Shown: in pieces, positions 2,152 through 60,040 of the stretch | How positions within the stretch are numbered: the first letter of the stretch is position 1 | How the letters are laid out: each line of letters opens with the position of its first letter | NCBI GenBank assembly: GCA_001642005.1 | Contig: LWCA01000028.1 | Span: forward strand, 9,511-73,510 | Direction of reading: 5' to 3' | Source: Intoshia linei | Lineage: Eukaryota > Animalia > Orthonectida | DNA length: 64,000 nt | Notes under the pieces: generated by a model | The model's database searches: none | Told to the model about the DNA's origin: nothing | The model's input: the letters and a program-made list of their open reading frames with translations, nothing else | Program-made: the position numbers and the translations under genes

Positions 2152-3852
2152 GTATATACATTCAATACACATTTTTTTTGAAATTGTAGGATGACAGTAC
2201 GGAAAGACATAATTCTATTTTATATTCAAGGTGTCTTAACCCATTTAACTAACTACCAAAACGTAAATTATTATATGAAATTCAGATTTATTCAGATTCT
2301 GAATAGATTCTTAGTAAAAATTTCTTACAGTCGTTAATATTTTGTTGGTATTTGTAAATAAGTAATTAACTTATTATTTTTGTTGATTATAATCAACAAC
2401 CATAAAGATCTACTAACGTTGAAATTAATCCATAAGCTTAATATCATATTACCAACATTATCGTTTAGATGAATAACTAGCAGCGAATAATACAAAATTA
2501 ATAATATTATTATTATTTAAGACTTAAATTGAGTTTAATTTAAACTTTAAATGAAAAAGTATGTATAAATTATAGAAATATTATAGAAAATAAACTATAA
2601 TATATATGTTTAAATTAATATTAAGTTAAAAATTTTAAATTTAAGTTTAAACGTCGTGCGTAACTCAACCCCAAAATTTTAGCAGATTTTAATGCTGACA
2701 TGATGTTTGTAATTATAATACTAGACTGTTGTAATAGTGAAGTTACAAGCATAAGTTAGAGCAGTTTTAGCAGTTCAATTTGTTGTAATAGTGAACAGTT
2801 CCAACTGAACTGTAACTTCACTTTAATATTAATAAACTTGTTTTAGCACATTTATTTCGATTTTGATAATGTTAGATTCGAACTTCAGATCTAATAGCCT
2901 TATTCTTCATTGATACCATTACATAGACTAATTTTTACTAAGGCTAAGAGAGATTTCGTTATGTGAATGTAGTAATTTCGTCTAAATGGAAACAATACAA
3001 ATATAGATAGATCATTTTCTGTAATATAACAGAAAATAATATTAAGTTTGTAATTTAACGATAAGATTTGTTGCTTTGATTCAAACTTTATTCTGTGTTC
3101 TAGAATAAATGTGATGAAAAATAAATAAAGTATATAGTTTATATGGATATATGAAATATACTACAGTGAAACACCCTAATGATTATTTACTTTTTCAATG
3201 CAACATTTGAAAAATATTGGTTGATAATATGTATAAAATTATTTTTCACCGTGACTGCGTAGATTTTTAGGTTAAAATTTGGTAATTATATCAATTGGAA
3301 TAAGCTGTATCAGAATATTTATTTTTTTTTTAATTGTACAACCGTTAATTATTTCAAATTTTTTGTTTTAAAAATATATTTTGTTAATAAAATAATATAA
3401 TAAAAAATTGAATACTAAAGTGCTTTTTTGACCATGAAGACGTCACTTATATAATACTAGATATAACTATCATTCGTAATTTTTTAAAAATTTTAAGGTT
3501 GTTTTCACTTAAAAAAAGGTAATCTGGGTTTTTTACCATGAAAATTACCTTTGAGATTATCATTTATGATAAGACATTAAATAAGACTTTCTTAATTTTT
3601 ACAAAAAAGGGTAATTTGTGGTTTTGGCCGTGAAGATATAAGATTTTCAAATTAAAAATTATCACAATATTGATGAACTTAAAACTTTTTACTATAATTA
3701 GTGCGACCATATTTTTAACGTACTAATATTGCTTAGAAACGAAAATGTAAAAAATATATAAAAAAAATTGTGTAACTAGACAATAACTAAATTGAGACAT
3801 AGTTTGATAACCATGAGTAATTGCTGAAAATGAAATATATATTTATTAAAAT

Positions 3853-4080
3853 TAAATTCCATTTAAAGTCCAAAAATTATTAGTAACACTAAATACTCTT
3901 TCTACATATGTATTTGAGCAATTTAGAGAATAATAAATCTGGATAAATTTTTTGAATCCATTAGTATCGATATTATCACACAAATCCTTCCAAGGAGGAA
4001 TAGTAAGAGAATTTTTTATACATAAATCAATTGCAACAAATTCATTGAAGATTTCATCTCGATTTATCTGGTTAAATAAA
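3853..4080 (-). mobile_element. hAT-family transposase C-terminal remnant (different subfamily)
   Basis: The minus strand reads ...FIQIYYSLNCSNTYVERVFSVTNNFWT, matching the hAT dimerisation motif SxAxxERxFS. Confidence 0.65.
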
Positions 4081-4712
4081 TTTATTTTGTCATAAATTGT
4101 GATACATTTTTGTATGTTGATCCAATTAACTTGAGTTTTATTAATAACAAAGTAGAATGGTGATAAATATTGAATTTGAATGTTGTTACAATATATACTA
4201 TAGATACGTAAAAATAAGTAAAAGTTATAAATAAGAAAATTTGTAATATAAAATTTAAATTCATAACTTTATTTAGTACGTTAAAAGTATGTTATTAGCA
4301 CTGTGCCAATAATGTATTTTTTTTAAAATAACGTACTTATGGTCACTACTATAATATGTAAATATCATAATTCTAAAACAGGTTTGAATTTAAAAATAAT
4401 CGGGAATTTAGTTTTTAACCTTGAAGGACTCAATCTCTGAAATTGAAATTTGCGATAAAACATCACCCTGGAAAAACTGTTATAAGAATATGAAATTTGT
4501 AAAACTTGTCTCCCATTACTTTCATAAATAAACAAACACATTTTTAACCATTTTACTTTATATATGTAAGGATGTAATTTAAATATAACTTTCCTTTTAC
4601 CGTTAACACTAGTTTATTGTATGTCACCACTGTTACTAAAATGTTATTAAATATTATTTATTGATTACACAGCAACGCTGATAATTTAAACATAATAATT
4701 TATCATTTATAA

Positions 4713-6950
4713 ATGATGAAAATGAATTCGTATCATAATTTGTGGTGGAAAGAGAAATACAATTTCGTAAATAATTTTAAAATGGACAATGTAATGAAAA
4801 TGATTGATAAAACTGTAAAACCAATAACAAATGGATTTCAAGCATACGATTACACAGTATCTTTTGATAGTAGAAAACTAACGATGCAAGATCTCAATAA
4901 AGATGGAACAATTTACAAAAAAGTTATTAAACCAGGAAATGGTGACAAAATTATTCCAACAGGCACTATTTGGGGTAATTTAATTTTCAAAATTGTTTAT
5001 TTTAAATTGAACATGAATAAATCTGATTTCTTTGTAAATTTTCAAAGATTTTTTTGAAATCTAAATGGGAGGTTTTTGGCATTGGATTTACATTGTGTAC
5101 AGTGTACACCTTATTAATCAATATAATTGTATAATTTAGTCGATATGACATGTTATCGTGAGTATGAAATTGAACCATCCATATCTACTTATTTAACCGG
5201 TAAAACTGCTTGGTTGACCATTGAAGATAGTAATGTTTTCATTGTATCTTTTAAAATGAAATTTAGTTGTGGCAATTGGTTTGGTTAAAGCACTTTTATC
5301 AATGAGAGTTGGAGAAAGAGCTCAATTTTTGCTCGATAGCAAAGTCATGTATGGTGATGCCGGTTTATATGAAAATGGTACCATGAAATTTGAAAAAAAC
5401 GAAAATTGTAGTAAAACAGTTTAATTGTATTTATTTCTTTTTAGTATTCTATGATATTGAATTGTACCATTTCAATGATTCTACAATTGTCCAAAAAATG
5501 CATGCAGTTCCAAAGGTATTTATTTATTATAGACAAACATTACATGTTTTATATAGAGTGAAAGACCAGATCTCGATATACAATTCCAGTATGATTATTC
5601 TAGGAAAAACAGAATAGTAACTTTTTATATTTTTTATTTTAAATTTTTATCTAGGAAGGGAATGTTAAATTTAAGGCAAGACGATTTATATCAGCAATTA
5701 AATTATACACTAGAGTAATTTTATTTAATTAATTTTATATAGTACACAAGAAATTATCATTTTCATAATTTTTTGATATAATTAATTAATTAAGAACAGT
5801 AAACTAGGGACACCAAAAATTGACTATTTTATAAACAATTTGTTTATTCTTATTGTTTACAGTTTGTTACCATGATTTGTCAAATATACAAAAAGTAAAT
5901 CTGTTCTTGTACAAAACTATTTTCTTTAACGTTTACTATAGGAAAATTTAGAAATTAAATTTAATTTAAATTGTGTTCTTATACAAAATGTTTACTGTAT
6001 AGACAAAAATTTTTCGTAATTTTTTCGTATAATTGTAAAAAAAATAATCATGTATAGCATCGTATACATCGATTAAACAACTGATAGAGAAACAAAATTT
6101 TTTTATACATGGGGTGGTCTCATTGAATTAACCCCATTTCATTGATTTTTTTAAATTGTTGAATTGAAAATTTAGTCTATTGAGTGTCTGGAAAAAGCTC
6201 GAACAAGAACTCATATTGATAAACTACTCGTAAAAACTGAATTGGTTTTGAATTTATCAAATAGGTCTTTGATTTATTTGATAATGAAAAAATACGACGA
6301 AAGCATAAAGGATTCCCTTGATGTCTTAAAACACGATTCTTCAAATGTAAAGGCGTTATACAGACTCTTAAAGGTACATTGAATATTATTGTAAATATAG
6401 CCCTATTAGAGTCGCACAGCAGTAGATTCAGCTCTATTCGGCACTCTAGTGAAATGTAGTTGAAATTTATAATTGAGAACAATTTATTCATAAAGCATGA
6501 TAATTAAATTAGTGGGCTCTAATACGACGGGTTACAGGAAAATTATATATTTTTAATTTAAAAAATTTGTCCATTTCTACTATACTTTTCCACGGTTTTC
6601 AAAGCTCTTAATTTTTTTACACCGTTAAATGATCAATGATCAATAAAAAATTCAATGTAATATTTTAGGTCTATCGATTACTCGAAAACTATGATGAATC
6701 CTTAATATACCTAAAAAGGTGTAGATCTTTGAACGTGATTGATTCGAATATAAACCGAGAAGCTAAACTGATTGACAGGTTGTTTGTTATGTCTTATAAC
6801 ATATATTTTTTTATTTTTGTGTAAATTTATTAATTATTTTCAATTAGATATTATAAAGATAAAATGGACAAGGAAAAAATGATTTACAAGGATTTTAAAC
6901 ATAATTTATTAAAATATAATTGTGAAAATAAAGTTAGGATTGACATATAA
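4713..6950 (+). CDS. FKBP6: FKBP-type PPIase domain plus TPR protein, FKBP6/shutdown-like
   Basis: Spliced exons give MQDLNKDGTIYKKVIKPGNG..., LLSMRVGERAQFL...FYDIELYHF, EGNVKFKARRF, LVLNLSNRSLIYL...NVKALYRLLK and DKEKMIY. These are collinear with the FKBP6 FKBP and TPR domains. Stop TAA at 6948-6950. Confidence 0.8.
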
Positions 6951-23133: not shown

Positions 23134-26100
23134 ATGTCTTTAAACCTACCAAGTTATAACAAAGTTGAACAGGTAAATATAAATCCATTTCATCACAAAT
23201 ATAATATTACTATGTTCATAAATTTACATTATTTTAAGCAAATATAATATATAAGAATATACATTAGACTGGTATAAAATGGGACCCAAGAGTCGCATAA
23301 GACCGGTCGATTAATTATCAAAATTATTTAAATTTTTATATTTGTTTCAGTAATTACATCAATTACTCTGTAATAATAAGATTAGTTTTAAGACCCAAAA
23401 ATATTTTTTTTGTATGATCCTCAATTTTCATCTATCCGGGACCTGTTGGCTTTCCGCGGGTATAATATCAGTCTTATATACAATAATGTTTAAACTAAAA
23501 TATAAACATTTAAAAAAAATTTAGCTGCGCAAAGAGAAATTTCATAAATCTCATCATTTGTATGTAGTTAATGAAACGAACATTGTTTCTAATTCAAAGT
23601 CCGGTATAGGGGGAGAAAAAATTTTAGAAACTGCCCCTGTCAATAATCGAAGTGAATTGGAATCATGTAAGAGAAAATCAGAACCCACATGGTTAGCATT
23701 TGATAAAATGGTATTTTAACAATACATGATATTAAATATTTAAAGAAAATTTACATTTTAATGACAAACTTTCATATTTTTTAAGTTTTTGAAAAATTCA
23801 GTAACTGTTATTGTAAATCAGTGTTTCCTAAGTTGAAAATCCCAACCTTTTTTATGCTAGATTCCACTTTTACTCTTAAAAAAATCCCAGGCCCCACTAA
23901 AAAAAATTCGTGCGAATTATAATGAAATAATGATAAAGACAATAATAATGTATTTATTTTTTAAAATTAATGAGACGATTGAGCCCGACGATTCTGACAG
24001 AGTTTATTACTATTAGGTACTAATGTTGTAAGCTTTAATCGTAGATCTCTCCTTTTTAAAATTTGTAGTCTATGTATTATTTTTTTCAGTAAGTCTAAAA
24101 CTGCACTAAACCCGCATTCTGCTAAATAAGAGGATGGAAATGGCAACAAAGCAACCCTAGCAAAAGTAGTTATAGTCGGATAATTTTGCATATACTCAGT
24201 AATTTAGTTAAATTTGAATTTAATACCCCACGATCATTAAAGATATATTTGTTTTTTGTCATTTTAATAATACAATTAATTGGGTTAAGTATCACATAAT
24301 TACTTATAAACCTGAGAATATTGTATAAAATTAACAATAAATTAATCTAAAGTTTTTATATTCCTATAAATTTGTAATATTTCTCAGGTTCCACCAAATT
24401 TCCAATGTCCCACTAAAAATTTTGTCATTCCCCACCAGTGGGGCCTGGCCCCACGGTTGGGAAACACTGTTGCAAATTATTATTACGGTACCGAAAAAGT
24501 TACAAGAAAAAAAATTTGAAAGTTTAGAAATGCAGTGGTCGCTATAAAAGTGACCAATATTGAAGGTTTTCGATTATTTAGTTTTTTTAAGTAATTTGTG
24601 TGTTTATTGTGAAGATGAAAATTGTTGAGGTTTCAATTTTAACACTGCTGATGATTTAAAAATTTTTTTTTTTCATTTTTTAAAATAAAGCCAATTTGTG
24701 GCTAGGAAGGTGATAATTTTTAAATTTGGAATTTATCTTAGTTTTTGCATCGGAAAAAACTGACTTTTAATTTTTGTTCATGAAATTTTTGGGACTCACA
24801 TTTCTCATTAAATGGTTAGAAAGAACAAATAGAAACACATTTTTAGCAACTTTTTTTACTTTACATATGAGTAGTACTTATTTAACATTTATTGTATTGA
24901 TTAATAAATTGTGTATGAATATCAAAATTTGTTGAAAATTTACTATAAAACTGAAATTTAATTATTTATAAGGATTAGAATATTTTGTGTTTTTTTTATA
25001 AAAATTTGCAAAAAAAATTCTGTTTTGTATTTAATTAGGAGACAAGTTTTTAATAATTTTTTAAATTTTATATTTTTATAGGTTTTGTCTTTTAATGCAT
25101 TTTTCCAAGAATCTGTTGTAGAATCTCAACATGAAAAATATAGAGTTAGAAATTGCAAAGTATATTTTTACCTTGAAGATGATACTATCCAAGTCGTCGA
25201 AGAAAAATACAAAAATTCTGGAATGACACAGGGTATGTTTTACAAATACATTCCATTGTAATTAAATTTTTGAATTATGTGTTAATTTTTAGGTACAATT
25301 CTAAAAAGGCATAGAATAAAAAAACCAGCTCCATATAGTTATGAATATTATACTGTGGAAGACTTTAATGTTGGCGATGAATTACAATTGTACTCTACAA
25401 AATATAAATTGGTCGACTGTGATAAATTTACACACACTTTTTTGACTCGATTAGGTGTTAGAGTAAATGCAGATGAAGATAGGGATAAAACTGTACCAAA
25501 AGATCCGTACGTAGAATATCGCAAAAAGGTAAACTGATGTCCATTATCTAGAGCAGGGCTTTTTAACCTATAAATTTAGCACCCCGTTAGTCAGATCAAT
25601 GATAATGACAATATTTTTTCACCTAATTTTTAAAGATTTTAAAGATTCAATAAAAATTGGGTCAAAAAAACCTCCTTTAAAAACCCTACCAAATTTTGGT
25701 TTTATAGGTTTACAAAATCTAAATATGCTGTGTGAATATCTTCTTTTTTTTAATGTCGATATTGACACGACATTTATCACGTGTGTATCTTTTTTGAAAA
25801 TATAAAATAGGTTGATGATAACATGAAAGCAAAACGACCATATGAATCACATGATACTCTGCGAAAGTTTATACAATTTGACGGAAAAATTTTGAGATTT
25901 TTATGTTATTGGGATGACACAAATACAATGTTTGGAGATAAACGAAACTTGATACTTAAATATTATTTGAGCAATGATACTATAGAAATTGTTGAAGTGT
26001 ATAAGCAAAATTGTGGAAGAGATGCGGTTCCCATATTTTTAAGAAGACAACCTTTACCCAAACACTTGGGTCGACTTCAAGCTCCAGGTTAGTATTATTG

Positions 26101-38269: not shown

Positions 38270-39528
38270 AACTGTCAACTTCTTGACGCGTTCTGGTTAA
38301 ATTGTACTAGACACCTGTTTTATCGCATTCCACAGTGAATTCGTGATTCAATAGAATTATATTGGGTTCTAGCAGCATATAGCCCTTGCACTGGTAGAGT
38401 TATATGTATAGTTAATAGGTTATAAAAATATTACATCTTTATCATGCTCCAATAATTTTCTATTGGATTTAAAACTGGACTGTTAGGAGGCCAAATTATT
38501 AATTTTTCTCCATTAATAGCATTTTCTGATAAAAATGTCCTACTATATGGTCATACATGTGGAAGGTGAATCGTGCATGAATTTGAAATTGTTTTTAAAT
38601 TCTTCACTCTTTGAATTGAACCATGGAAAGTAGTTCTTCTCCAAAAACTCTGTGTAACTAACTATAAAAATTTAAACATGCCAAAATAGTGAGTATTACA
38701 ATTTAGAATTTAATTTTACGCCACTTGGAATTCGAAATGGTCCTAACACTTGACTATCAAGTATTACAGCCCAAAACATGACCCCTCCTCCATCTTTTTG
38801 GCAACGCAATCTAATCGGAACTTTAGCATCATTAAGTACCCAGCCTCTTGACCACCCACCCGGTCCATCTAAAGTTGCACGGCATTCATCAGTGAACATA
38901 ACCATATAGAAATTTATCTTTAAATTGACTTTAACCCAATTAAGACGTTTTACTTTATGAATTGGCTTTAAAATTGGTCTTTTCGTAGATTTTTTGACAT
39001 AAGAAATGGTTTTTAATACCCTACAACGAGTATTTCTCGAGAAATTGTTATGTTACAAGTTGTAAATAATTTGGAACTAGTGGCAAGTGGTGTGGTAGAT
39101 ATTTCTCGCCTTAATCGAGATAATTCTCGCAGTGTCATTACTTTTTTTTGCATATTTGGACCTATCATTTTAATTATTTAATTTTTTGATGGGTAATGAG
39201 CCCATTTTTTAATTTTCGATGGTCGCGTTTTAGAACTTTGGATATAAAGAGTTGTCTTTCCTCTGGCCAATAAGTCTGTTATTTGACTTTTTTCGTCATT
39301 CTTTTGTCTCATTTCAAATTTGCCTAACAAATTGACACACTAATTTAAGTATATAAACAATAATATGTGAATGAAAAGTTTTTTTTACAAATTAAATTTA
39401 GTTTATTTAATGAATAATATTAACATCAATTAAAAGCCACCTAATTACGAAACAAAAAATTAAGTTTTCATTATTCCTAAAGTTTATTAGATGAATTTTA
39501 GTGATCTGCCTAATAAATTAACACACTG
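38270..39528 (-). mobile_element. Decayed Tc1-like transposon (TRT/DD37E-like)
   Basis: VMFTDECRATLDGPGGWSRGW...GGGVMFWA and WPPNSPVLNPIENYW. One terminus (cagtgtgttaatttattaggca, flanked by TA) is at 39528, with an inner direct repeat near 39321. The left boundary is approximate. Confidence 0.85.
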
Positions 39529-43139: not shown

Positions 43140-43496
43140 TTATTGCGGTAATCTTGACTTGGATAAATAATCCATAAACCTTGACGCTTCTAAAGATCGT
43201 TTTCCTAAAAAACGGTTGAATCGCTCGTCCGAATTTTCGATTCGTTCCAATAATCTTCGCAGTTCTTCAGATGCTTGTGATCCATATTGATTAATGCTTC
43301 TCGTTTGCATAAACTCATCATTTAGACGACCATTAATTACTTTTCCATTTGGGTAACCGACGTCATTATAAAACTGCTTCCACTTTCTAAATATCGGTAA
43401 AGCGACTTTGTTAACATCTGGGTCTGAATTTTGTGAATTTACTCCAACAAAGATTAAAATATAGTAGAATTTCATAAAACAATTTTTCGAAATCAT
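43140..43496 (-). CDS. Putative neuropeptide precursor (signal peptide, amidated peptide ending RFNRFL-GKR)
   Basis: Single-exon 118 aa ORF with a hydrophobic N-terminus (FYYILIFVGVNS|Q), basic sites RK, RR and KR, and a GKR amidation/cleavage signal. Confidence 0.7.
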   Translation of the reverse strand: MISKNCFMKFYYILIFVGVNSQNSDPDVNKVALPIFRKWKQFYNDVGYPNGKVINGRLNDEFMQTRSINQYGSQASEELRRLLERIENSDERFNRFLGKRSLEASRFMDYLSKSRLPQ

Positions 43497-43713
43497 TATT
43501 AAAATGAAACTTAATGAAATCTATTGATTGCAACTTTTATTAAGAATGTAAATAAACGACACCACTTTTATTAATTGAAATGAGCAAAGTAATACATGTA
43601 TAATTATAAACTAGGTACTACTGCAGAACGGATCAGAAGTCAAAATCGATAAAAGAACATACTAAAACATTTAATTTACACATGTCAAAATATACACAGA
43701 AATTAAAACAATG

Positions 43714-46700: not shown

Positions 46701-49700
46701 AAGAATTTTTAAATTTAATTCAGTGTCTTTACTGTTTTCATCTTCTGGGATAGTTTTAGATATATGAAACTCATCATTAGTTGAATTTCGTATGAAATAT
46801 GCAAACACTCCGATAAAAATTTTTTGTTCGTCCTTTTCAATATCGTACATAGATAAATTCAAAACATTAATACATTCTACAAGTTCCACTTCCAAATAAT
46901 CCAATGATTGTGGCAGAATATTCAAATTTTTAGTTGATTTGGAAAATTCAAAAAGGGCCTTATAAATTGGTTTCACCAACTTTTGTTTCAAACAATAATT
47001 CACAGAATCTGAAAGTAATTCATTTCCAGCATAAGAAGTTTCCATGTCCTCATTATCATCTATATAAATCTTTTGAGATTCTGAACAAGTTTCATAATTC
47101 TTTTCCTCTTCCACTTCTACAGTGTCATTATTCTCACTTTCGATAATTTGTAATGTATCCTCCTGGTCTTCATTGTTTGACTGGACTTCGGTTTGGTCGT
47201 CGATAGATGTTACTTCAATGTCATTGTCTGTTTGAACTTCTTCCTGGTTGTCGTTAGATTGAACATCTTCATTTACAGAAACATCAATTTCATTGAAATC
47301 GTTTGTATCAATTTGATTAGAACTGTAATCACAAACATTGCTATGTTGCGTTTCGTCATTTTCATCTCGACTTTGACACTTTTCACAAGGACATTCTTTT
47401 TCTTTGATGTCGTCATCCGTTGCCGACACTGCCACAGAATCTGTCTTACTGTTATCGATATTGCTAGAATCGATCATATGAGTATACTCAGAAGAACACT
47501 TTGGTTGTTTATTCTTGACGACTAAATCCATGGCTAAATCGCTTTCATTCTGATTAATTAAATCGCAATTATTAACAGGATCATCACAAGGTACTGCACT
47601 CATAATTGAAACATTTGAATGAACTGAATAAGAATCAAATTCATCTTGGATAGACGTTTTTGAATATTCAAGGCAGTAAATGTTATTTTTGGATATAGAA
47701 TCAGATGGTTGGGCTTGATTGGATACAATCCAATTCGACTCACCTTCCACTTGCGTTGAAACTAGTCTTTTATTCTAAAAAAAATTATCAATATATAAAC
47801 ACTAGGGCGTTACATTTTGTCCACAAGAAAATACATGGTCGCATAATAATTTACATTTTTCTTTAATTGTATAGTCAATACACTCTAATATTTGCAAAAA
47901 TGGACTCCCACACGACATTTAATATTAATTAAAAACTAACTTAAATTAGATTAGAATAGTTAAAAGGCAAATTTATTATCACTCAATATCAAGACCCTTA
48001 GGCGGTTTTCCTAGTTTTAAAAATTATTGCAATAAAATACTAAAACTTCACAACAAAATTAAAGCCAATTACACAATTAAATTTAGTACCGGATACTTGA
48101 AAAATACATAATTAATTAAAGTGTCACAATTTTTAAATGTTAATTTTAGGCTCTAAATAACATTTAGTAACAATTATAATTGTTATATAAGATCAAAATG
48201 TCACGTAATATTCTATACTAATGGTGGCCAAACACGGCCCGCGTAATCATGCTTTCATACTTATGTTTACATTCAAATTTTGAAATTTATTGTTTACATT
48301 GTAAATTTTACATGTCACATTCTATTTAGATAATTAACCGTCTATTTTTGCGCATAAGATAAAATTTTCTTATCTTTATCTCCTTAATAAAACAATTGTA
48401 TATTTTTAATTAGATTAACTAAATGCAATGATATAAAAATTAAATTGTTTGGTTGGTTTTATCAATAGTTGAACAAAAAAATTATTTTTATTATTTATCA
48501 ATAATAGACTAATTTTTTTTTATATTTGATCAAATTTTCTTTTATTGTTTGCAAAAAAATAATTATAAATACGTACAATTTTGAAACTTAATAATTAAAA
48601 TATACTCCAAAAATAATAATTGTTAATTATTCAAATGGAATTTTGACTCTTTAATATTTAAATAAAGCAATCAAATTTACAAGCCAAAATAGAATTTTAA
48701 TCAATTTAAATTGTTTCATGTGTATTCACGATATTTTATCGAATAAAATGAGTTTTTTGAACTCAAATTCAAGTGAATATCAAGACTCTTGCTATAAAAA
48801 TTTAACACAAAACAATTGATATTCAAAAAAATAAATTTTTCAAAGTCAAATTGGAAAAACTAGGCCTTCGTTTTACAAAAATTTTTCAAAGAGTAATACT
48901 AAAAAAAGTTTAGCTACCACTGCAATATGCATGGGCGAAGGTGAATTTAAACATTTACCTCCAATTCTTTTGAAAGTCGTTTGATTTCGTATATAATCAT
49001 GACAAGTTCATTGAGAGGAAGTAAACGAAGATTTAATTTGATATCAAAAATACTCTAAAAATAAAAATTAAAAAATATGATTTAAAATACAAATTATAAT
49101 TACAAAATTTTCGTCATTACGAATGTCTGTATCTTTGTTATACCTCGATAAAATGGATAACCAATAATTATCATCGCTAAAAATAAATACATACATTACA
49201 ATTTAAAATACCGTTTTGATTGATTCGTAAGTATTTCTTCTAATAAAAATAAAAATTATCGAATAAACTTGATAAAAACCTAGGCTGGATATTAACCGAT
49301 CTAGTGATAGACTACTATACATTTCACCCGTATCTAAAGCAGAAAACTGATTGACATTTTCTCCTTCAAAAATTTTTTGATCGGTATCATATGAAGTAAT
49401 CAAAATTCCACCTTCAAATATATCCGAAATAGTCAATGTTTCATCTGGAACGTCTTCACTAAAAATAAAAAAGTGTTATTTACACTAAAAAATATTACAA
49501 ATCCAGTGGTTCCTGAATAGCGATAGGAGCTAAAATGAATTAAAATACAAAATCTTAATAATCATTTTAGTTCATGTAATGTGACGCCACTTTATGTTTA
49601 AAATTGTGATTCTCAAACTAAAATGGTTACTGCAGTGCACTGGTACGAGAAAGATTAAATGAATATCATAGTTTATTTGCAACAGGAGTTTTAAAATCTT

Positions 49701-52700
49701 TCATACACCCATATATTTTATATAAATAAATTTACTTTGTTCCGAATCATAAATTATAACAGCGTTTCTCACCTTTTTTACTCTTGTGGACCATGGAAAT
49801 TTGTAGTTAGATTAAATTTTAACATAAGTTTCAATGGTGAACATTTCTTATTTATTCGAAAGAAATGTGTTATTTTTAATATAATATAAATAATATTCTA
49901 CTGATTCTTCGTAGTTGAGAAACGCTGCTCTATTTTTTGACATTTTTTGGAAAATATCAACCCAGTTATGGTTGAATAACAAGGTTTAAAAAAATATAGT
50001 ATTCTACATTATTTATCTCGCATAAGTATATCAAATTCCAAAGTGGGAGTGTATTAGTAAAGTATAGATAAAATACTGCATTTCCATATGTAAAACTCTT
50101 AAAGTGTTTGTATTGTGCCGCAAACCAAAAAGTTTGAGAATCACTAGTTTGATTAAAAAAATACTCTGATAATCCAATAAAATTCTTGATGTATCTATAG
50201 CGTATTTTATGTAGTCGTTCAATTTAGCTCTAGCAGCTTTGGTTAAACGCGGTAATATAAAGTATGAAGAAATTGCATCTCTAATTGAAAATTCGGATCG
50301 CTCGTTTACTAAAAATTGTTAAATTAATATTAATAACTTGAAAACGTTTTTCAGGGTTTGCAGGTTTTGATTGTAGATGAAAAATAATTTTTGAACGCGG
50401 GTAAGCTATAAATTGATCCAATGCAACCTCCAGTTTAATTTCAGGTTTTTGTACAAAAAAAGGTAATTTTAATAATTCATCCATTGATATTCTAACCAAA
50501 TTATGACCATAAACTTAAAATAATACCTATCAGGAAGTTCTTCTATACATCTGAAAACTAATGCTTTTATTTCTAAATCCCTGATCATATAAATTTCTTT
50601 CGGTTTTATTCCCTAAATAATAAATAATTGTTTTGTAAATAAACATCATTGTATATATACAATGGGGCCAGGTGATCCGCACTTTTTTTAATATCAAAAT
50701 GGCATATACATTATCATATACTATATACCAGTGATTCTTAACCTGGGAAATAGCGCCCCCCTTGGAGCGATATGGGTGGCAAAAATATTTTTATCGCATC
50801 AGTTGGGATTCCAATATAACATCAGATTATAACCGTTCAATGAGCCTAGCTGGCACAGTCGTTATAGTCACATGATTATTTTGTAGAAAGGGTTTGTATT
50901 CATTTTTGGAATGTTACTATTATCTATTGGAATCTTAATGTTACTATTGGCCTTTCCATCTACTTACCTTGTTGAGAAAAGTTTTAGCGTAGTAACTGAT
51001 CTTCAATCAAAAAAGCGGAACAAACTACATTTATCAAAACAGTGACTTAAAATTATGCTTAACAAATATAGCTCCTGATATTGAAAAATTATCAAATAAT
51101 CATCAATATCAGGGTAGCCATTAATAATAAATTTTATCTTTTCTTTGTAAAGCTTAAACATTTATAATGTCATGATTCCATTTAATATTTCTAATTTCAA
51201 ATTTGTTAAATTTATTCATTATAATATATTTTTCTTTTTTTTACATACTCAGTTTTTATGGTATTTTTTGTATACATTATTTTCATGATCCATCAAATTA
51301 AAAAAATAATTTCCAATTTCATTTGCATATTTCTTGAGATACCAAAAAAACAATCATTAATTGCTTTTTTTATTGTATTCTGTATCAAATCTACTGTTAA
51401 AAAAATTTCTGTATAACATGCATTGCACATTCATAACCTTTGTAAATTAAAAAATATCGATTGTCTTTATGAGGCGATAATTTTATTTTTGTTGAAAAAT
51501 GGCCGAATACGATTGCGATTTAATGATTACGATAAAATGATGGCTGAGATGCGGCAATGGCCGCCAAGAAATTTGAGATTGAACCGTCATACATTCTTAA
51601 CTGTAAACAAAAGAGAAACAAAAAATTTCATTGAATATTTGACCTAAGTAAAAAACCTGTATGACAAAATAGCGCAACAAATTTGTAGAAATTTTGAATT
51701 TTTAAAAAAACAAGTTGTTAATTAAATTCATCATTACGGATATTAAATAAATGTACTCGTCCTAAAAGCTATGACATGTTTGCCTAACCCGAATTATAAT
51801 GAGGACACTTTCAATTTAGATATAATAATGATCAAGGATGATACCAGCATTGCTGTTTTATTACCAGCAAAATTAATCAATTTTTTGAATACGATTAAAT
51901 TTTGATGTATAATCACAATTTGAATTAATTTAGAATAAAATCTCTTATTATCATTTCATATTATCGTTCAACAGCATGAATTCATTAAAACACTTTAAAA
52001 AAGACGGAGTTAATTACATGCAATGTTTAGTATGCTCAAAAAGAATCAAATACATAAATTCTCATTCACACATGGCGTCATTGAGGAACCATTTAAAAAT
52101 ACATGGTGACTTGGACAATGTTTCTGTCACGCCAAAAATAACGAGTATTTTAGCAATTAAGAAAGATGAAAAATTTCCAAATTTGCCACATATTCCATAT
52201 CATTTTGTTAAGAATATACAAGATAATTATTCTTCACTATATAGTAATTACTCTGGAATGATTGATATTCAATATGTTGATACTATAAGTGGAAAGTGGA
52301 GAGATGACTACAATAAGTTGTATCAATTGGTTAATGGTCATAAAACCCTTAGAACTTATCATTGCAATCCGAAAATTAACTTTAGAAAACCATGTAGCAT
52401 CTCAAATGCTAGATGGAACTCTAGAAGTATATACTGCCTCAAAGCTTTTATATTAAACGTGGATAGAACGCCAAATATGATCGAAGCGTGTAATTTCATA
52501 TCTTACGTGTGGAGCAATTGCTGGTTTACGTGTCGTTTCCAAAAAGACACCTACAAACCTTTGGTAATTATTTAAACACAATAGTTTTTCGCCAAACTGA
52601 ACGTCTCCGTAATCAATGTTATCTTAAATATGGTCAAACTAAGATAAGCCCTCGGTATATTCTACTCATACATAGTTATAAATATTTATATACAAATCGT

Positions 52701-55700
52701 ATAGTAAAATTCAGTATCCTTTTGAGCACCCTCGTAGAGTTTTCAAATAAAATATCATAAATTTATCTTTATCATTATGGACGAAACTGATTTAAATAGA
52801 TATAAGTACATTAATACTATGATCAGAACATTAGAAACACCTCAGACTGTAATATGATTGTAAAAATATTACAAGTAATATGAACGGACAAATGGTCATT
52901 CATACTCTTCATGATACACATAAAAATAATTAAACAAAACAATACAAAGAAACTTTTTAAAAGATAATTTTAAAAAATATTTGATTTTGTACTACAACAA
53001 ATAATACACATTTTATACATCTTTATTAATACTTAAATTAGAGATCGGAAACCTTTTGCATCTAGTAAACCACTTTTCTATTTTTTACAGGTGTATTAGA
53101 AATAGTAGATATGACTAACGGGTACTAAATTTAAAAAAGGTTATGAAACCCTGAATTAGATATTTACGGACATAAGACAACGCTGCTTGTTCTACAACAA
53201 CTATCTAATAATGGCAATAAAATTATGTTTTAAAATTTATAAAACGGTGCTACAACCGACAAGGCCACAGAAATATTATTATTATGGCGAATAAGAGATT
53301 TCACTATTTCAGACAGAGACAGTATTTCATCACTGTTTAGAAAAAAATTTAACAAAAAAAACAACACTACGTGAATTTTTTTGTTTTTATGGGTTAAAAA
53401 AAAATCGCCCTAATTATAACCTATCAAGATCTGATTAACCAATACGTAGACCAACATTTGACAACTACATTGGTTATCAAATCAGCTATTCCCGGACTCA
53501 CAAAATCAATTCAACGTTAATACTTAAAGTTAAAATAAGAGATTTTGCCAATCTAAGGTATCTAGAAATTTTCAACACAAAATTAAAAAAAATTAAATTG
53601 GTATATTCTTCATACTCAAAATCACTTTCCTTACTCTTGACAAATAAGATGAAAGCAATGATTGAATTTTTCCAACGTTTCAATTATACCAATCTCTACA
53701 AATATCACTCCATTTGATATTATTATAGAATGTTGACAGAATTTAGAGCCTACGCGTCATCCAAACAGCTGAAGATGGTGGCCGCTTGTGTAGACTTCTT
53801 GTTTATGGCGTCGCGAGATAAAACTTACACAGCTTTGAGACTGGCCGCAATAGCAACAAGGTATTATGAACATGCATCCTTATCATTGATGAAGGAGTTC
53901 ATGATTGAGGGACGCATGGATTCATGTTTATGGTTTCATTCAGTGGCATCCACAAATGTATCAGACGAGTTGTGGAAGATAATGGAAGATCCAGGGCTTA
54001 GTGAAAGAGACTCTCTTATACCATATTCAAAATCTATGATTATAGTAGCAAGAAGTCCATACTCATCGTCGGCGAATTCTTATTCTTATGTTAGCATGGC
54101 AACGTCCATGATTTCTATAGGACAAAGATGTTTATAAAAATTTGTTAAACGACATTGAAATTTGTAAAAACATTAATTCTAGTAATAAATATATATTTCA
54201 TTTTCAGCAATTACTCGTGTTTATCACAAACTTTATGTCTCAATTTAGTTATTGTTTAGTTACGCAATTTTTTTATGTATTTTTTAAATTTTCGTCTCTA
54301 AGCAATATTAGTACGTTAAAAATAGTGTCGCACAGTGCGACTCGCACTAGTTAAAATCACATCTTAGATTTAGAAAAATTTATGGTTCCTTATTTGAAAA
54401 GACAGGCATAGAATTCAATTAAAGACCCTCGCAATATATCTACCGCTATCGGATAATATACGAACTTACTTTCGCCTTTTAATTACCGATTCAAAACTGA
54501 TGTAATGAAGCATTTAAAATGGTATGGTACAGGCTTAACATTTGTGGAAGTATATAAACAAAATCTGTAACTACAATAAATACAGCAAGAATTAACCTGC
54601 AAAGATTACAGTCGTTATGATAGAAGAATATCATTATGGATGAGGAAAAATATAGAGCAGCCATGTTATTTAAAATGGGTAAACGCACGCTGTAAGGATT
54701 CACTACAAAAAAGAAACATATATAACAGCAATGATATAGGCGAGATCCCATGAAGCCGTAAAACTAATAGAAAATTTACAAACCTCAAAACAAGGGAAAC
54801 AATGTCTTGGTGCGATAACAACTATATTTCTAAAAAAAATAGCCCTGTATGAAACCACCAATTTTCTCACTGCAAAAAGATGGTCATTTCCAGAGATGGT
54901 GCAGTGGAAAATACGAAAACCTTAACGATATCAAATCCGGCTTAAATACATATATCGATGTCACCAATATCGAAGGCGAACAGGTAAATTTAGTGAAATG
55001 TATTATTGATACTAATGGAAACGAAAATATCATTAAAACAAACATAATTGTATTAAAGCTATTCACTCTCCCCAAAAATGTATAAAGGCGATTTGATCTT
55101 ACGTACTTACACTGCGTTCCAAGTTATTAGGTAAGTCACGTTTTGCCGAACACTATGGTTTACTGTTTATATTGATAATTTTTTTTGCTAAGTAATTAAA
55201 CTTATAATATTTTTTACGAGATTTAAGTTTTTTAAATTTTGTGTATCGTCAAAGAAAAAGTAATTAATTAACTTTTTTAATTAATTGATGTTCCAAATTA
55301 TTAGGTAAATAAATAATGGGGCAAAAAAAAAAAGACCTTACAAAGGACGAAAAAACCAAAATTACCAAACTTTTGAGCAAAGGTAATAGTCTTCACGAAA
55401 TTTTGCGTCAAAAATCGATAGGAATGTAAGGACGATAAAGAAATACACTTTGAACTCTGAACGAAAAAGGGCGCGAAAACCTAAAGGCGGTATCAAAGGA
55501 CTGACTACACGAGGATACCAAAGATTGTTGTTGAACTTGCAAAGAAACCATTATCATCATCAAAAAAACTTTTTCGTCAGCTGGTTTGTCTACAATCCCT
55601 CGAACATCAAGATGTCATGCACTAAATAGAATCGCAAAATCCGTTAAAGCCAAAACAAAACCACTTCTTAGCTAAACAACATAAACATAGAAGAGTCAAA

Positions 55701-58700
55701 TGGGCTCATAATTATATGAAGACCGATTTTTCGAAAGTTATATTCACGGATAAGTGCTGATCGACTTTAGATGGACCGGATGGGTGGACGAGAGGTTGGG
55801 TTTGTAAGGAGTGGGGACCGGTATACCGCCTTCGGAGACAACAAGGTGGTGGAGGTATCATGTTTTGAATGGCAATTGTAAGTGATAAGATTGTTGGACC
55901 ATTTAGACACACTGCAGGGCTAGAGTCGATAGGTTCACGCATATCCAGTTTTTAAAGGACAATTTCTTTCCATGGTATTCTCGACAGACACAAAAGTTCA
56001 AAAGGGGTCTAGTTTTTATGCAAGACAATGCACCATGTCACTCAGCTAATGATACCAAATCTTTTCTAGCATCAAAGCATTTCAAAAACTAAAAATTAAT
56101 GGTTTGGCCGGCTTTGTCACCTGATCTCAACTGCATTGAAAATATGTGCAAAGTGCAAAGTCCATTACCCCAGTACAAATAAAAATGTTGACCGGGTCGA
56201 TGGAAAATAGACTTCTGAAGATCGTAGAAAACGAAGGTGACTACATCAACTACTAATTAATATATTTCTTTTTTTATAGTGTTGTTTGTTTAATTAGTTT
56301 AATTTAATTTAATTATTTAACATTAAATGTTATTTTGGATACATATTTATGTTTTGTAAGAGCAATTAATAAGTTAAAGTGATTAATTGTATAACTTACC
56401 TAATAATTTGGAACGGTCAAAAACCAATATATTTTAAAAACTCGTCAAATAATTTTACTATTTTTCTGAAATTTCGAAGATGTTCTTTCACAAGGTCTAC
56501 GAGTTAACGTAAAAAAATTGTTAAATTTTAACAGCTTAAAATCAGTGAAATGCCACATTTCAACACTTACATAATAATTTGGAACGTAGTGTACACAAAC
56601 ACCATAATTCCATATCAAGGTTGCATTAACCTAATTTTTCCAGATAAAAGCAGAACATTTAATTTTTATATAACCAATGGTCCCAATGTCCTAAGCTGCA
56701 AAACATCGTTGCAAATGAAATTTTGCAAACAAATTTCAAATGAAATGAATTAAAACAGTAGACCAGTCGACAATGAAACCTAAAGCAGTTTAGTATATCG
56801 ATGCAGTCGATTCAGCAACAATATCTCCCATCTATAAAAATATTTTCGTCAAATTTCGGTACGTACTATCTAATTACAAATGTACGAGCAATACCGGCAT
56901 TCACTCAATACCGTTAAGGAAGACACCGGTTATAAAGGACCCATATACACTTATTTATCAAATTTTTCTCGATAATTCTCGAGAAATTGCAAGCTCTAGT
57001 TGTAATGCTTTAACCCAGATGGAGTACGTCAATTAAATAAAATTAGACAAAGATTTCATTTGCACAGACCCCCTAAAGTTGTATTTAGAAAGTCAATTTT
57101 TAAAATAAAAATCTTTACTAATAATAACTCTTCTAAATAGATATAACAAGAGTTTATACCATTTGGAAGGGTTTGCTGATTTCGAATGAAAAAAAAAAAT
57201 GGAAAGTAAATTTTTCATCATAAATTGAAGGCTCTGAAAACCATTAATGCTTCCAATGGAGAAAATGTGTATAATTTCTCGAATGCTACCCTACAAGGTC
57301 CTCAAGGTTTAATATAAATACACCTAAATCTCGAGTTTTTATCAGGGTGGAATTTTCAGTAAATTATTTTGTATAATATTAAAAATTACCACAACGACTT
57401 TTCTGTAAACTTGAATGGCATTTTTACATTCAGTATAAGGATAACGATCGGTAGCCATTTCTACAACACACATACCAAAAGAATAAATATCGACCAATTC
57501 ATCATAATTTTCACTATATATTTCTGGAGCCATAAATTGAGGTGTACCGATAATGGACTTGACATGATCATTTTTTTTAATCCCGGCCAATCCTAAATCA
57601 CCAATTTTAACTGTTCCAGTAGACCCAGAAATGAAAATATTATCGCATTTTAAATCACGATGAATGATTGGTGGTTCTTGGTTATGTAAAAAGTTTAAAC
57701 CGAGAAGAATTTGCTTACTCCAACTCCTAATAAGCTTTCTAGATACAGGTGCTAAACTTTTAATATACGCCTTGAGGGTTCCTGAAGTGAGTAAATCAGT
57801 CACCAACACAAGATCTCCCCGTCTTCGTTCACTATTCCAAAAGTCATGATATTGAACAATATTATTGTGACTAATCCGTTTGAGCAAACGTGCCTCTTTG
57901 ATAAAAAGCATAACAACCTCTTTTGACCACGCTTTACTATGTAATTCACACCAAGCAAGATAGATTCCAGTTTCCGTGTCCAGACAAGGGTAAACAATTT
58001 TATACGAACCTCTTCCCACTGCAACTTTAAAACGCAGGAAACGGCCACAGGGAGACATTAATTTATCATCGTTTTTTTTATCGACGAAATCGTTTTCTTC
58101 AATATCCACTTCAAAATCGATAAATTCATCTGGGTTTTGAACTTCAATGATTATAGAATTATCTGAATCGTCCTCATCGTTTGTTTTGAAAATAATTTCG
58201 TTTAAAATAGCCATAGCTTTTGATTTACTGATATTTTTCCCACCAATATTAGCCTTGAGTCTAAACATTTCATTTTTAATTTTTTTCAATCTACTGTATT
58301 TGAAAACTTTTCGATCACAACTTCGTATCTTTAAAGAATTTCTCATAATATTCATTTGGTGCCAATTGCAGACTTGTGATGAATCATTTTTTAATTGACA
58401 ACCACACACAATTAATCTTTTTACAACAATTTCACGTCCATTACGGTCAATGCCTTTTTTTTCTAGCCATTCGGTAGTTATGTCATGCATTGAACTAGAC
58501 ATATTTTTGGATTTAAGACAATTGTATTTACTGAGTTCCAGAAGATTGAATTCTTCAAAATTAATGCTTCTTTCGGTTAAACTAATAATGTTTATGTTGT
58601 TACACGTTGGAGCGTAAAAGTAACTTTGATCTTGCATTCGTTCTTTCAATATTGGATCAGCGTATCGAACCGTGTCCACGAAATCGTTTGAAGGGTCACT

Positions 58701-59140
58701 GAAATATGCCTCATCGCCTTCTTTATGCTTAAAAAATCTCTTTTTTCGTTTTCGCCAGGCGTGCAGGCCTGTATCTTTGGTATTGACGCATTCATTAATA
58801 TCATAAATCATTGGAATGAAAAGTTTGCCATCTAAAGAAATATTTCTATACTCAAAATCGGAAAAGGATTTTGTAATTTTTAGAATTCCGTTAGTATCGG
58901 TTTTCTCAAAAAATACTTCAGCTTGTTTACCTAAAAACGACACTATAAAATGAATTTTTCAAAATACATACCATCAGTAGTCATCTTTCTGTTTTTTGCA
59001 GTATTGTTAAACACAAACATGCCCTTGCGAGTGTTGTAATAAATTTTCATTTCTGATTTTAAATTTCTCTTTTTCTTTGTCTTTTTAAGTGTTTTTTTGA
59101 CGTTAAAACGTCCCGTTTTAACTGGCTCCATATCTGACAT
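43714..59140 (-). CDS. WNK: WNK (With-No-Lysine) serine/threonine kinase, multi-exon
   Basis: GRGSYKIVY (Lys in subdomain I), [28 protein letters not shown] and [10 protein letters not shown]. The kinase resumes after a 6.8 kb intron (GIKP.. at 50612). Later exons, in phase where checked, include a C-terminal coiled coil ([22 protein letters not shown]) and a Q/N/Y/P-rich last exon ending at 43714. First exon 59140-58972. Confidence 0.88.
45164..45339. mobile_element. Foldback MITE with about 56-bp TIRs and 5-bp TSD
   Basis: ccaaggacagtttaaaccaagacgaaatacgaggcgttctagtaaaaaagattgtg is matched by its reverse complement at the right end. tacat flanks both sides. Confidence 0.8.
48220..48922. 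mobile_element. Probable hAT non-autonomous element in a WNK intron
   Basis: Ends tggtggccaaacacggcccgcg ... tttagctaccactg resemble hAT TIRs and subterminal motifs. Confidence 0.45.
50729..51125 (+). mobile_element. hAT/Buster remnant in the WNK intron
   Basis: Terminus cagtgattcttaacct. Coding relic [29 protein letters not shown]. Confidence 0.8.
51976..52575 (+). mobile_element. BED-zinc-finger transposase remnant (hAT-related)
   Basis: [11 protein letters not shown]...[11 protein letters not shown] (BED finger), followed by a [17 protein letters not shown] transposase core motif. Internally deleted. Confidence 0.7.
53230..53620 (+). mobile_element. Possible heavily decayed Ty3/Gypsy integrase fragment
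   Basis: [11 protein letters not shown] resembles the integrase IVSDRGxxFTS motif. DLINQYVD / [13 protein letters not shown] and VKIRDF resemble the post-catalytic and C-terminal integrase regions. Frameshifted. Confidence 0.4.
53730..54137 (+). other. Endogenous viral element: rhabdovirus-like nucleoprotein (N) fragment
   Basis: [11 protein letters not shown]...[16 protein letters not shown]...[13 protein letters not shown]...[23 protein letters not shown] aligns motif by motif with vesiculovirus/lyssavirus N (KIVAAVDMFF, RYGTIVSRFKDCAAL, VADEMVQMM, DSYMPY, SPYSS). Intronless and richer in GC than its flanks. Confidence 0.85.
54327..54351 (+). mobile_element. Helitron-like 3' terminus (GC hairpin plus CTAG|T)
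   Basis: gtcgcac-a-gtgcgac palindrome followed 5 nt later by ctag and t. Confidence 0.55.
54361..54720 (+). other. Endogenous viral element: nodavirus-like RdRp (protein A) fragment, pseudogenised
   Basis: One frame with four stops reads [49 protein letters not shown]...[29 protein letters not shown]. This matches Nodaviridae motif F (PRNIST..LS.FTY.FK..V....WY) and motif A (DYSxxDG..S.WM..NI). Confidence 0.85.
54790..55109 (+). mobile_element. Ty3/Gypsy (Mag-like) gag zinc knuckles and protease N-half, decayed
   Basis: SWC...SHCKKxGHFQRWC double CCHC knuckle relic, then [14 protein letters not shown] (retropepsin DTG-like). Interrupted at a TA by the Tc1 element. Confidence 0.65.
55110..56591 (+). 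mobile_element. Near full-length, inactivated Tc1-like transposon with both TIRs, DD37E (TRT-like), IR/DR ends
   Basis: TA|cactgcgttccaagttattaggtaagt ... acttacataataatttggaacgtagtg|TA, with inner repeats at about 55290 and 56400. Transposase VIFTD..LDGPDGW...QDNAPCH...SPDLNCIEN has 37 residues between D and E, plus stops and frameshifts. Confidence 0.92.
56592..56950 (+). mobile_element. Continuation of the Gypsy protease and start of RT after the Tc1 insertion
   Basis: [14 protein letters not shown]...[11 protein letters not shown] (protease C-half), later [17 protein letters not shown] (RT N-terminal-like). Confidence 0.55.
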
Positions 59141-59789
59141 GCTAAATTGATTTATTTTTAATTATTATTGTAAATTACTTAAAAGGTAAATAACTATATT
59201 TACAATCTCAAATTAAATAGCCACATTTGAAAAAAAGCATATTTTCAAACAAATCCGAGTCTTGACAAAATTTATATGGTTATCCAAATAAAAGTATATT
59301 CAAACACTGCGAACTGGTTTGTTTGAATACATAGTTCAATTTACAATTTGAGGCCATTATTTTTCAATTTGCAATTTGAAATTTGCGAATGTAAACAAAT
59401 ATATGAGTATAACATTGATTTTGGATATAATTTAAACGCACACATGTGTAGAGTATTTAGTTCATAGCATTATTACTTCAATTGTACCAATGTATACTTT
59501 GATACAATTTATGTATCGATTTAGTTCTACTTTTAATATTTGAATTTGCATATTAATTTACTCGTGGACTCTCATTTAAATTTTAAATGAATCAAATCAA
59601 AAATGACTCAATTGAATTAAACTGTTAAGAAATTTTTATTCCACTTTTAAATTTACGACTGATTTTGTACCAAAACTTCATTTCATTTTTAAATTAAATT
59701 ATGTACTTTTTTTGAGCAAAGCCATTTATTCATTCCAAAAATTCTAAAGTTCATTTATTAATGGGCGTTCAATGTTGCTTCATTTAAAC

Positions 59790-60040
59790 TCTTAAATAGG
59801 GAGTTGAAGATGTCATCTACAACATTTGTTGATTGGTAAAAGTTTATGAGAGATATTTTTATCTCAATGATTATAGATTATCCAGAAAGGATTGGGGGGG
59901 GGGCATGCAGTGAGGTTCAAATTGACGAAAATCAATTGTCAAAAAGAAAGTACAACGTGGACAATTATACCCAGAATAGAAATGATACAGATGTAAATAG
60001 ATTGAATCATTTTATACAACATAAATTCTGGAATGATTTT
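59790..60040 (+). mobile_element. Merlin/IS1595 (ISXO2-like) transposase remnant
   Basis: STTFVDW*KFMRD...IGGG..EVQIDENQLSKRKYN matches the Merlin consensus TIVDW..F.RE...IGG.G..VEIDES.F.KRKYN. Confidence 0.75.

Follow-up and report, generated by a model that had tools for sequence, protein, structure and literature searches.

RNA virus fragments and transposon remnants lie antisense to the host gene in a long WNK kinase intron of the orthonectid Intoshia linei

A 6.8-kb intron of a WNK kinase gene in the orthonectid Intoshia linei, a tiny marine parasite, holds a rhabdovirus nucleoprotein fragment and a nodavirus-like polymerase fragment among transposon remnants, and its anatomy resembles that of a uni-strand cluster of endogenous viral elements (EVEs) and transposable elements (TEs). 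We favour, with slightly better than even confidence, the explanation that retrotransposon-captured viral fragments collected in an insertion-tolerant WNK intron and were filtered for orientation, which requires no small-RNA role. Positions are those of the window, the whole 64,000-nt stretch of contig LWCA01000028.1 that was analysed.

The exon upstream of the intron (57390..58930, minus strand) encodes most of the kinase domain (Pfam Pkinase, E = 1.9e-43) and was found in spliced contigs; the kinase is presumably a WNK, judging from the lysine and cysteine arrangement of subdomains I–II. The intron itself (50613..57389, minus strand, 6777 nt) has GT-AG ends, and the reading frame continues across it into the 3' exon (50527..50612, minus strand), which was supported by spliced contigs and a frame check. 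The splice joint 50611->57389 was present in runs X2, X3 and X4 of one study, all three of the runs having spliced contigs; the kind of these runs is unrecorded, and they were taken as transcript-derived only from their GT-AG joints. The Pfam match, intron ends and splice joint thus bore out an earlier, sequence-only reading, which had placed a 6.8-kb intron in the WNK kinase gene. Its contrast between one giant intron and short typical ones also held: seven of the ten WNK introns measured 35–41 nt, and the remaining three 635, 1184 and 6777 nt.

The rhabdovirus nucleoprotein (N) fragment lies at 53718..54137 on the plus strand, as had been claimed. Its matching part (53748–54089) identified Pfam PF00945 (E = 4.3e-9) and solved nucleoproteins in PDB (E = 4.5e-5), whereas viral contigs contained no relatives of it and a word search returned only the I. 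linei model. That model, GenBank A3Q56_00514 (OAF71728.1; UniRef 'Rhabdovirus nucleocapsid domain-containing protein'), includes the same fragment, which had gone unnoticed within it. The model was generated automatically and links the ORF at 51976 to the N piece as two exons; we rejected it as a real two-exon gene because its joint was absent from the splice joints listed. The N piece is truncated, and one stop occurs in the 193 codons of its frame, just upstream of the fragment.

About 230 nt away lies the trace of an unrelated virus family, a nodavirus-like RNA polymerase fragment in a single frame (54370..54711, plus strand). It gave 224 matches with E ≤ 1e-3 (best 2.1e-16), confirming the proposed plus-strand nodavirus RdRp as nodavirus-like. 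Among the top matches checked, RdRP_1 was present in 12 of 12 and the nodavirus methyltransferase domain in 11 of 12. Named relatives were Mosinovirus protein A and Beihai noda-like virus 18, and the closest viruses found shared only about 30–44% protein identity with the fragment. By itself the piece matched nothing in Pfam, and its sole PDB match, to a 1011-residue RNA polymerase, was weak (E = 1.5). It is truncated, carries four stops in its 114 codons, and is continuous with transposon DNA in a contig (54306–55137) of the DNA-type run X1, possibly the sample from which the window was assembled. Both viral pieces have decayed, as EVEs do after integration, and both are homologous to proteins of RNA viruses without a DNA stage. 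A live-virus contaminant was rejected on the stops, the truncation and the joins to transposon DNA. In the remaining 57 kb, no further viral piece was found in the 209 ORFs scanned (258 listed), and tblastn with 157 proteins from the nodavirus search gave no viral match.

Both intron junctions were bridged by X1 contigs (49882–50807 and 56488–58868), and the X1 contig mentioned above ran from a Helitron-like tail through the nodavirus-like piece and a gag-protease-like piece into the start of a Tc1 element. Together with the correct joining of the WNK exons in spliced contigs and a window free of N gaps, these contigs argue against a short-read misjoin over repeats in the middle of the intron, by which the order, neighbours or presence of some pieces would be an assembly product. 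We regard such a misjoin as very improbable, although the contiguity of this draft assembly is limited to an N50 of 26 kb, pieces end at repeats, and none of the contigs listed for X1–X4 covers the entire intron. The core of the N piece lay in no contig listed for the four runs, a gap in partial, filtered tables that proves nothing, and no join of this piece to flanking DNA was found among those contigs. Read depth in its bin matched that of the neighbouring Helitron-like tail.

This tail (54128..54350, plus strand) belongs to a repeated element whose 5' side is cut. It shows a hairpin and CTAG followed by T, a weak signal by score (z = −1.9; 11 of 200 shuffles equally good), and has a 91% copy at 3701–3848. 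The Helitron end of the earlier reading was therefore supported by structure (hairpin, CTAG and repeated copy), but a 5' TC end and a Rep/helicase gene were not found (the tail is cut at about 54128, and no such Pfam match occurred in the intron); the segment is a Helitron-like tail rather than a whole element. Its location between the N and nodavirus-like pieces, with abrupt joins, would suit a virus-rich block assembled elsewhere, either within some bigger cluster of EVEs or as the cargo of a Helitron, then brought into the intron by one copying event. Clustering and common orientation would then be inherited, the intron being a mere landing site, and the lack of target-site duplications at most pieces also favours this view. 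We nevertheless consider it quite improbable, given that other copies of the tail have different upstream sequence, that neither a Helitron 5' end nor a helicase piece was found, and that the nodavirus-like piece lies outside the tail's end. Contigs from X2 and X3 containing the tail diverged from the WNK-intron locus before 54128–54137.

Two further DNA transposons were recognized. A full-length, decayed Tc1/mariner element occupies 55110..56591 (plus strand), with inner and outer terminal repeats, flanking TA on both sides and a DDE_3 match (E = 2.3e-7). Its terminal inverted repeats, inner repeats, TA duplication and DDE transposase fit the IR-DR type and substantiated the plus-strand Tc1 proposed earlier; a second Tc1 at 38455–38992 shares 35–57% protein identity with it. 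At 50729..51126 (plus strand) we found an internally deleted hAT-like element, consisting of one terminal repeat and the last transposase codons. Its coding frame shows homology with that of a repeated element located at 23970–24149 (within-window E = 9e-4 and 2e-4). The 'Buster hAT' claimed here stood as hAT-like by this homology and its terminal motif, but Pfam gave no match, only one terminal motif is present and no matching target-site duplication was found; the Buster label is presumptive, drawn from motifs. A second hAT-like terminal end, seen by eye at 53121..53153 (no strand assigned), is flanked by an 8-mer unlike that of the element at 50729–51126. Pfam missed hAT-like pieces elsewhere in the window as well, so blank Pfam results on short decayed pieces are weak.

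The retrotransposon pieces are leads at most. At 54760..55085 (plus strand), Atlas neighbours from retroviral protease and zinc-knuckle families suggest that a zinc knuckle and the beginning of a protease, both of an LTR retrotransposon, are probably present; their scores of 0.80–0.89 lie under the 0.9 mark, and Pfam and PDB gave no match, so that the proposed Gypsy gag-protease is retained as a lead. A Gypsy integrase piece, claimed by eye at 53243..53500 (plus strand), found no support in Pfam, PDB or a word search, and no LTR pair was among the repeats listed. Similarly, the 213-codon ORF at 51934..52575 (plus strand), the longest in the intron, is coding-like and transposase-like by eye, yet Pfam, a word search restricted to longer proteins, and Atlas all failed to support it as the BED transposase that had been named. 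Coding-like debris at 56592..57389 (plus strand) gave nothing in Pfam, in PDB with three plus-strand frames or in a metagenome scan. By eye it continues the retrotransposon protease and opens a reverse transcriptase, in which case the Tc1 may have inserted into a retrotransposon remnant; the two sides of its insertion site are out of register.

'Tiled' overstated the extent of the foreign pieces: of the intron's length, 35% is occupied by pieces confirmed in databases, 9% by pieces with structural support and 17% by leads. All five pieces with an assigned orientation run antisense to WNK (p = 0.06, or 0.24 under an illustrative 75% prior), and p would be 0.008 if all eight claimed pieces were counted; these values treat the pieces as independent, and neighbours may share one origin. 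The statement that every recognized insert lies on the plus strand held for the five oriented pieces; the BED and integrase claims lacked database support, and the gag-protease is a lead. Coding-like windows numbered 41 on the plus and 13 on the minus strand (222 overlapping windows), and in Pfam searches of minus-strand intron frames, none of three whole and none of nine partial frames matched. The plus-strand bias is real in direction and modest in significance, and, as in a uni-strand cluster, the foreign fragments are mostly antisense to the transcript.

In the explanation we favour, viral RNAs would have been copied into DNA by the reverse transcriptase of an LTR retrotransposon and inserted as chimeras whose parts shared one sense; this would account for the nodavirus-like piece running straight into the gag-protease-like piece. 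Viral DNA in mosquito cells is described as arising by virus-LTR recombination (PMC6797480). DNA transposons, including the Tc1, would later have inserted into already dispensable intron DNA, deletions would have left the majority of pieces only some hundreds of bases long, and selection would have purged insertions in sense orientation because they would truncate or mis-splice a well-used kinase transcript. Supplement 1 of PMC7943196 gives the I. linei genome as 41.8% repeats, with 8.0% DNA transposons and 1.3% LTR elements; other repeats are numerous in the window, and WNK has its 635- and 1184-nt introns besides. An antisense bias of intronic elements, ascribed to purifying selection, is described in PMC3088655 for mammalian LINE and LTR elements, DNA transposons excluded; insertions oppose the host gene there as they do in this one I. 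linei intron. A 42% repeat genome, a shared origin of neighbours and selection against sense insertions could yield the same anatomy.

In line with this explanation, AATAAA was rarer on the host-sense strand of the intron (5 versus 13), as it was in the window's five other long gaps when pooled (13 versus 27), of which one showed the reverse and three count as introns only by an ORF-gap reading; the asymmetry mostly tracks base skew, itself present in short introns too. Donor-like motifs were commoner on the sense strand (17 versus 9), which speaks against selection on splice signals. Two virus families about 230 nt apart, with no viral match in the scans of the other 57 kb, are not readily produced by neutral scatter, and the retrotransposon partners of the proposed capture are the gag-protease lead and the unsupported integrase.

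The adjoining viral families and the five of five antisense pieces also suit a second reading, close to the small-RNA cluster proposed earlier from sequence, in which WNK-driven antisense RNA (retained-intron, lariat-derived or prematurely ended) would be cut into piRNAs or siRNAs, and viruses and transposons that match them would be silenced. An Aedes uni-strand cluster carries TE-EVE hybrids on one strand (PMC7161354), a dog-whelk rhabdovirus-N EVE yields negative-sense 1U RNAs of 28 nt (PMC6085071), and supplement 15 of PMC7943196 indicates that I. linei retains three PAZ-PIWI proteins and one Dicer, although its Argonautes were not found in the alignment supplement of that paper. Contigs of the spliced-type runs, which hold no strand information, cover intron parts 54350–55137 and 56683–57381. 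Against these points, the WNK mRNA spliced in X2–X4 lacks the intron, whereas the described host-gene route requires an exported, cytoplasmic antisense transcript (PMC13226689); the main WNK form keeps no antisense sequence in an exported precursor, though minor retained forms may occur. The intron is also small (6.8 kb versus 143 kb for the Aedes cluster), and the nearest viruses found are so distant from the nodavirus-like piece that they point to no current target. We judge this small-RNA source somewhat unlikely. In the boldest version, a housekeeping kinase intron in a stripped-down parasite genome would be a small immune archive run from the host promoter, its excised or retained antisense RNA being processed into small RNAs that target noda-like and rhabdo-like viruses as well as several transposon families, an intronic flamenco counterpart outside arthropods; we consider this unlikely.

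Known systems match the intron in part. Like Aedes aegypti nrEVEs with LTR retrotransposons (PMC6797480, PMC7161354), it has RNA-virus fragments next to pieces of transposons, with a single strand coding; the Aedes clusters are described there as mostly intergenic, up to 143 kb long and shown to give antisense piRNAs, whereas the I. linei stretch is intronic, measures 6.8 kb and has LTR partners only as a lead. The dog-whelk EVE shares a rhabdovirus nucleoprotein piece, a marine lophotrochozoan host and host-transcribed antisense; 1U negative-sense small RNAs were measured for that element and no genomic context is described for it (PMC6085071), whereas the I. linei piece has its context. Antisense Tirant in the 3' UTRs of Drosophila host genes (PMC13226689) is likewise transcribed by the host through foreign sequence, but those insertions are exonic and exported, and the I. 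linei stretch is spliced out.

We found no description of endogenous viruses of orthonectids in the literature searched; PMC6396948 mentions in a single sentence that I. linei carries viral-family RdRP genes. The two fragments provide fossil evidence for past entry of rhabdo-like and noda-like viruses into the germline of orthonectids. If the intron does yield small RNAs, spliced-out intronic RNA could supply antiviral and anti-transposon memory, which would contradict the current view of the precursor as necessarily exonic and cytoplasmic.

The host gene carries a kinase domain on the − strand (Pfam Pkinase, E 1.9e-43), which we take to be WNK from how lysine and cysteine are placed in its subdomains I and II. 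Contigs of four of the six sequencing runs listed, DNA-type X1 and X2, X3 and X4 from one single study, were aligned to positions 47500–60000 of the window. A joint 50611→57389 skipping 6777 bases was present in X2, X3 and X4; the skipped segment (50613–57389) starts with GT and ends with AG, and the WNK reading frame is kept across it, confirming the 6.8-kb intron proposed by the sequence-only reading. Short introns prevailed, as that reading had stated: the joints delimit ten introns in WNK, seven of 35–41 nt and the others of 635, 1184 and 6777 nt, and the reported Intoshia linei median is 57 nt (PMC6543705). X1 contigs crossed both exon junctions of the 6777-nt intron, and another covered 54306–55137; none of the contigs listed spanned the entire intron, and X1 is possibly the sample behind the assembly. 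The order of pieces in mid-intron rests on the assembly. We consider an assembly misjoin very improbable, and import of the block from elsewhere improbable.

At 57586, contigs of X2, X3 and X4 matched the kinase exon and then diverged for at least 255 letters, representing either a WNK paralogue or a gene of the host animal. The X4 joint 48418→48959 (region 47814–48461) suggests an alternative exon inside the 1184-nt WNK intron, a minor form; the non-canonical X2 joint 49706→50163 is another minor WNK form.

Both viral fragments claimed for the intron were recovered. The rhabdovirus nucleoprotein (N) piece (53718–54137, +) matched Pfam PF00945 (E 4.3e-9; 36 bits, cut-off 26; profile positions 176–290 of 410) and solved nucleoproteins (best E 4.5e-5). 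The nodavirus-like RdRp piece (54370–54711, +) had 224 matches at E ≤ 1e-3 among 1.84 billion representatives (best 2.1e-16, identity about 30–44%), with Mosinovirus protein A and Beihai noda-like virus 18 as its named relatives; of the 12 best matches scanned, all contained RdRP_1 and 11 the nodavirus methyltransferase domain. When 157 proteins (150 of the 224 matches, as listed, and seven cluster members) were searched against the window by tblastn, this piece was the sole place matched, in one + frame. Both pieces are truncated, contain stops and lie about 230 nt apart. Outside the intron, Pfam found no viral families in 209 of 258 ORFs of at least 48 codons, those left out being mostly alternative frames over known exons.

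The N-like ORF matched one protein record, a 99% identical predicted I. linei protein, and the N piece already lies within an automatic gene model named after the rhabdovirus nucleocapsid domain. This model, GenBank A3Q56_00514 (+), joins an ORF at 51976–52320 to the N piece (53730–54134) inside the WNK intron and is probably an annotation chimera. Viral-family RdRP genes are mentioned for I. linei without detail (PMC6396948). Non-retroviral EVEs beside transposons are a well-known arrangement; in the accessible, mainly non-subscription literature on I. linei or Orthonectida and endogenous viruses, including the available parts of PMC11097642 and PMC6085071, we found no description of this locus.

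Among the transposon claims, the Tc1 held fully: a whole element (55110–56591, +) that has inner as well as outer repeats, is flanked by TA at either end and encodes a DDE transposase with a frameshift. The piece called a Buster hAT (50729–51126, +) is hAT-like, with one terminal motif and a coding-frame match to another repeated element of the window; it may belong to the Buster group. The piece called a Helitron end (54128–54350, +) is a Helitron-like tail with a CTAG and a 91% copy elsewhere in the window, and the hairpin ahead of the CTAG is weak. The Gypsy gag-protease (54760–55085) is a lead: its Atlas neighbours, which all score below 0.9, carry zinc-knuckle and retroviral protease families. 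By eye, the protease runs on past the Tc1 into reverse-transcriptase-like debris, so the Tc1 would be a nested insertion; searched alone, this debris gave no matches. Database searches gave no support for the BED transposase (51934–52575) or the probable Gypsy integrase (53243–53500). Of the intron's length, 35% lies in confirmed pieces, 9% in pieces with structural support and 17% in leads. Pogo-like helix-turn-helix debris was seen by eye at 51455–51690 (+), where Pfam gave no support.

Outside identified introns, transposon debris lay on both strands, at 1150–2144 (+), 3701–4268 (−), 23840–24469 (−) and 38455–39052 (−), and comprised hAT-like pieces (partly by eye), a Helitron-like tail that directly adjoins a hAT-like ORF, and another Tc1. 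Host genes identified by Pfam at 7891–63526 were a sugar transporter, EF-hand, ATG13, DOT1, DM10-domain, TPR (CTR9-like, by eye), rhodopsin-type GPCR, EMC3 and PACS. A 126-codon ORF at 43143–43520 (−), with a hydrophobic start and dibasic and amidation sites by eye and no Pfam match, looks like a neuropeptide precursor.

Every recognised insert had been placed on the + strand, antisense to WNK. This stood for all five oriented pieces (two-sided p=0.06; p=0.008 counting all eight), but their independence is doubtful because pieces that arose together as virus–retrotransposon chimeras would lie on one strand from the start. If an antisense prior of 75% is taken, an illustrative and unmeasured figure, the values become 0.24 and 0.10, respectively. 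Unbiased measures agreed in direction: coding-like windows numbered 41 on + versus 13 on − (of 222), and codons in ORFs of at least 60 codons 1182 versus 637. Two motif controls were weak. AATAAA occurred five times on the sense strand and 13 on the other (13 versus 27 in five other long gaps pooled), a scarcity that follows base skew; donor-like motifs went the opposite way (17 versus 9).

We moderately favour an origin in which viral RNAs would have been copied into DNA with the help of LTR-retrotransposons and integrated into the WNK intron, DNA transposons would have accumulated, deletions would have trimmed the pieces, and sense-oriented insertions would have been lost. Such copying has been shown in mosquito cells (PMC6797480), loss of sense insertions is described for mammalian introns (PMC3088655), and the repeat content of I. 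linei (41.8% repeats, 8.0% DNA transposons, 1.3% LTR; PMC7943196 supplement 1) fits. This origin explains least well the two viral families side by side.

That clustering favours the intron as a putative small-RNA source, a reading we hold to be doubtful. The intron looks like a uni-strand cluster, of which it may be a member: an Aedes cluster has TE–EVE hybrids on one strand (PMC7161354), and here viral and transposon pieces likewise share one. A whelk rhabdovirus-N EVE yields antisense 1U 28-nt RNAs (PMC6085071). I. linei has three proteins with PAZ-PIWI domains and one Dicer, and lacks a cellular RdRP (PMC7943196 supplement 15). However, the host-gene route described so far starts from a cytoplasmic transcript that must contain the antisense piece (PMC13226689), and the WNK intron is spliced out of the main transcript. 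An intronic antiviral small-RNA archive is unlikely.

An FKBP-domain gene with TPR-like exons lies at 4713–6400 (+) (Pfam FKBP_C, E 5.7e-4); against PDB, its match to FKBP6 was not significant (E 0.29), with higher overall scores for two wheat FKBPs. FKBP6/shutdown is a piRNA co-chaperone. If this gene is truly FKBP6/shutdown, it would hint at a retained piRNA pathway.
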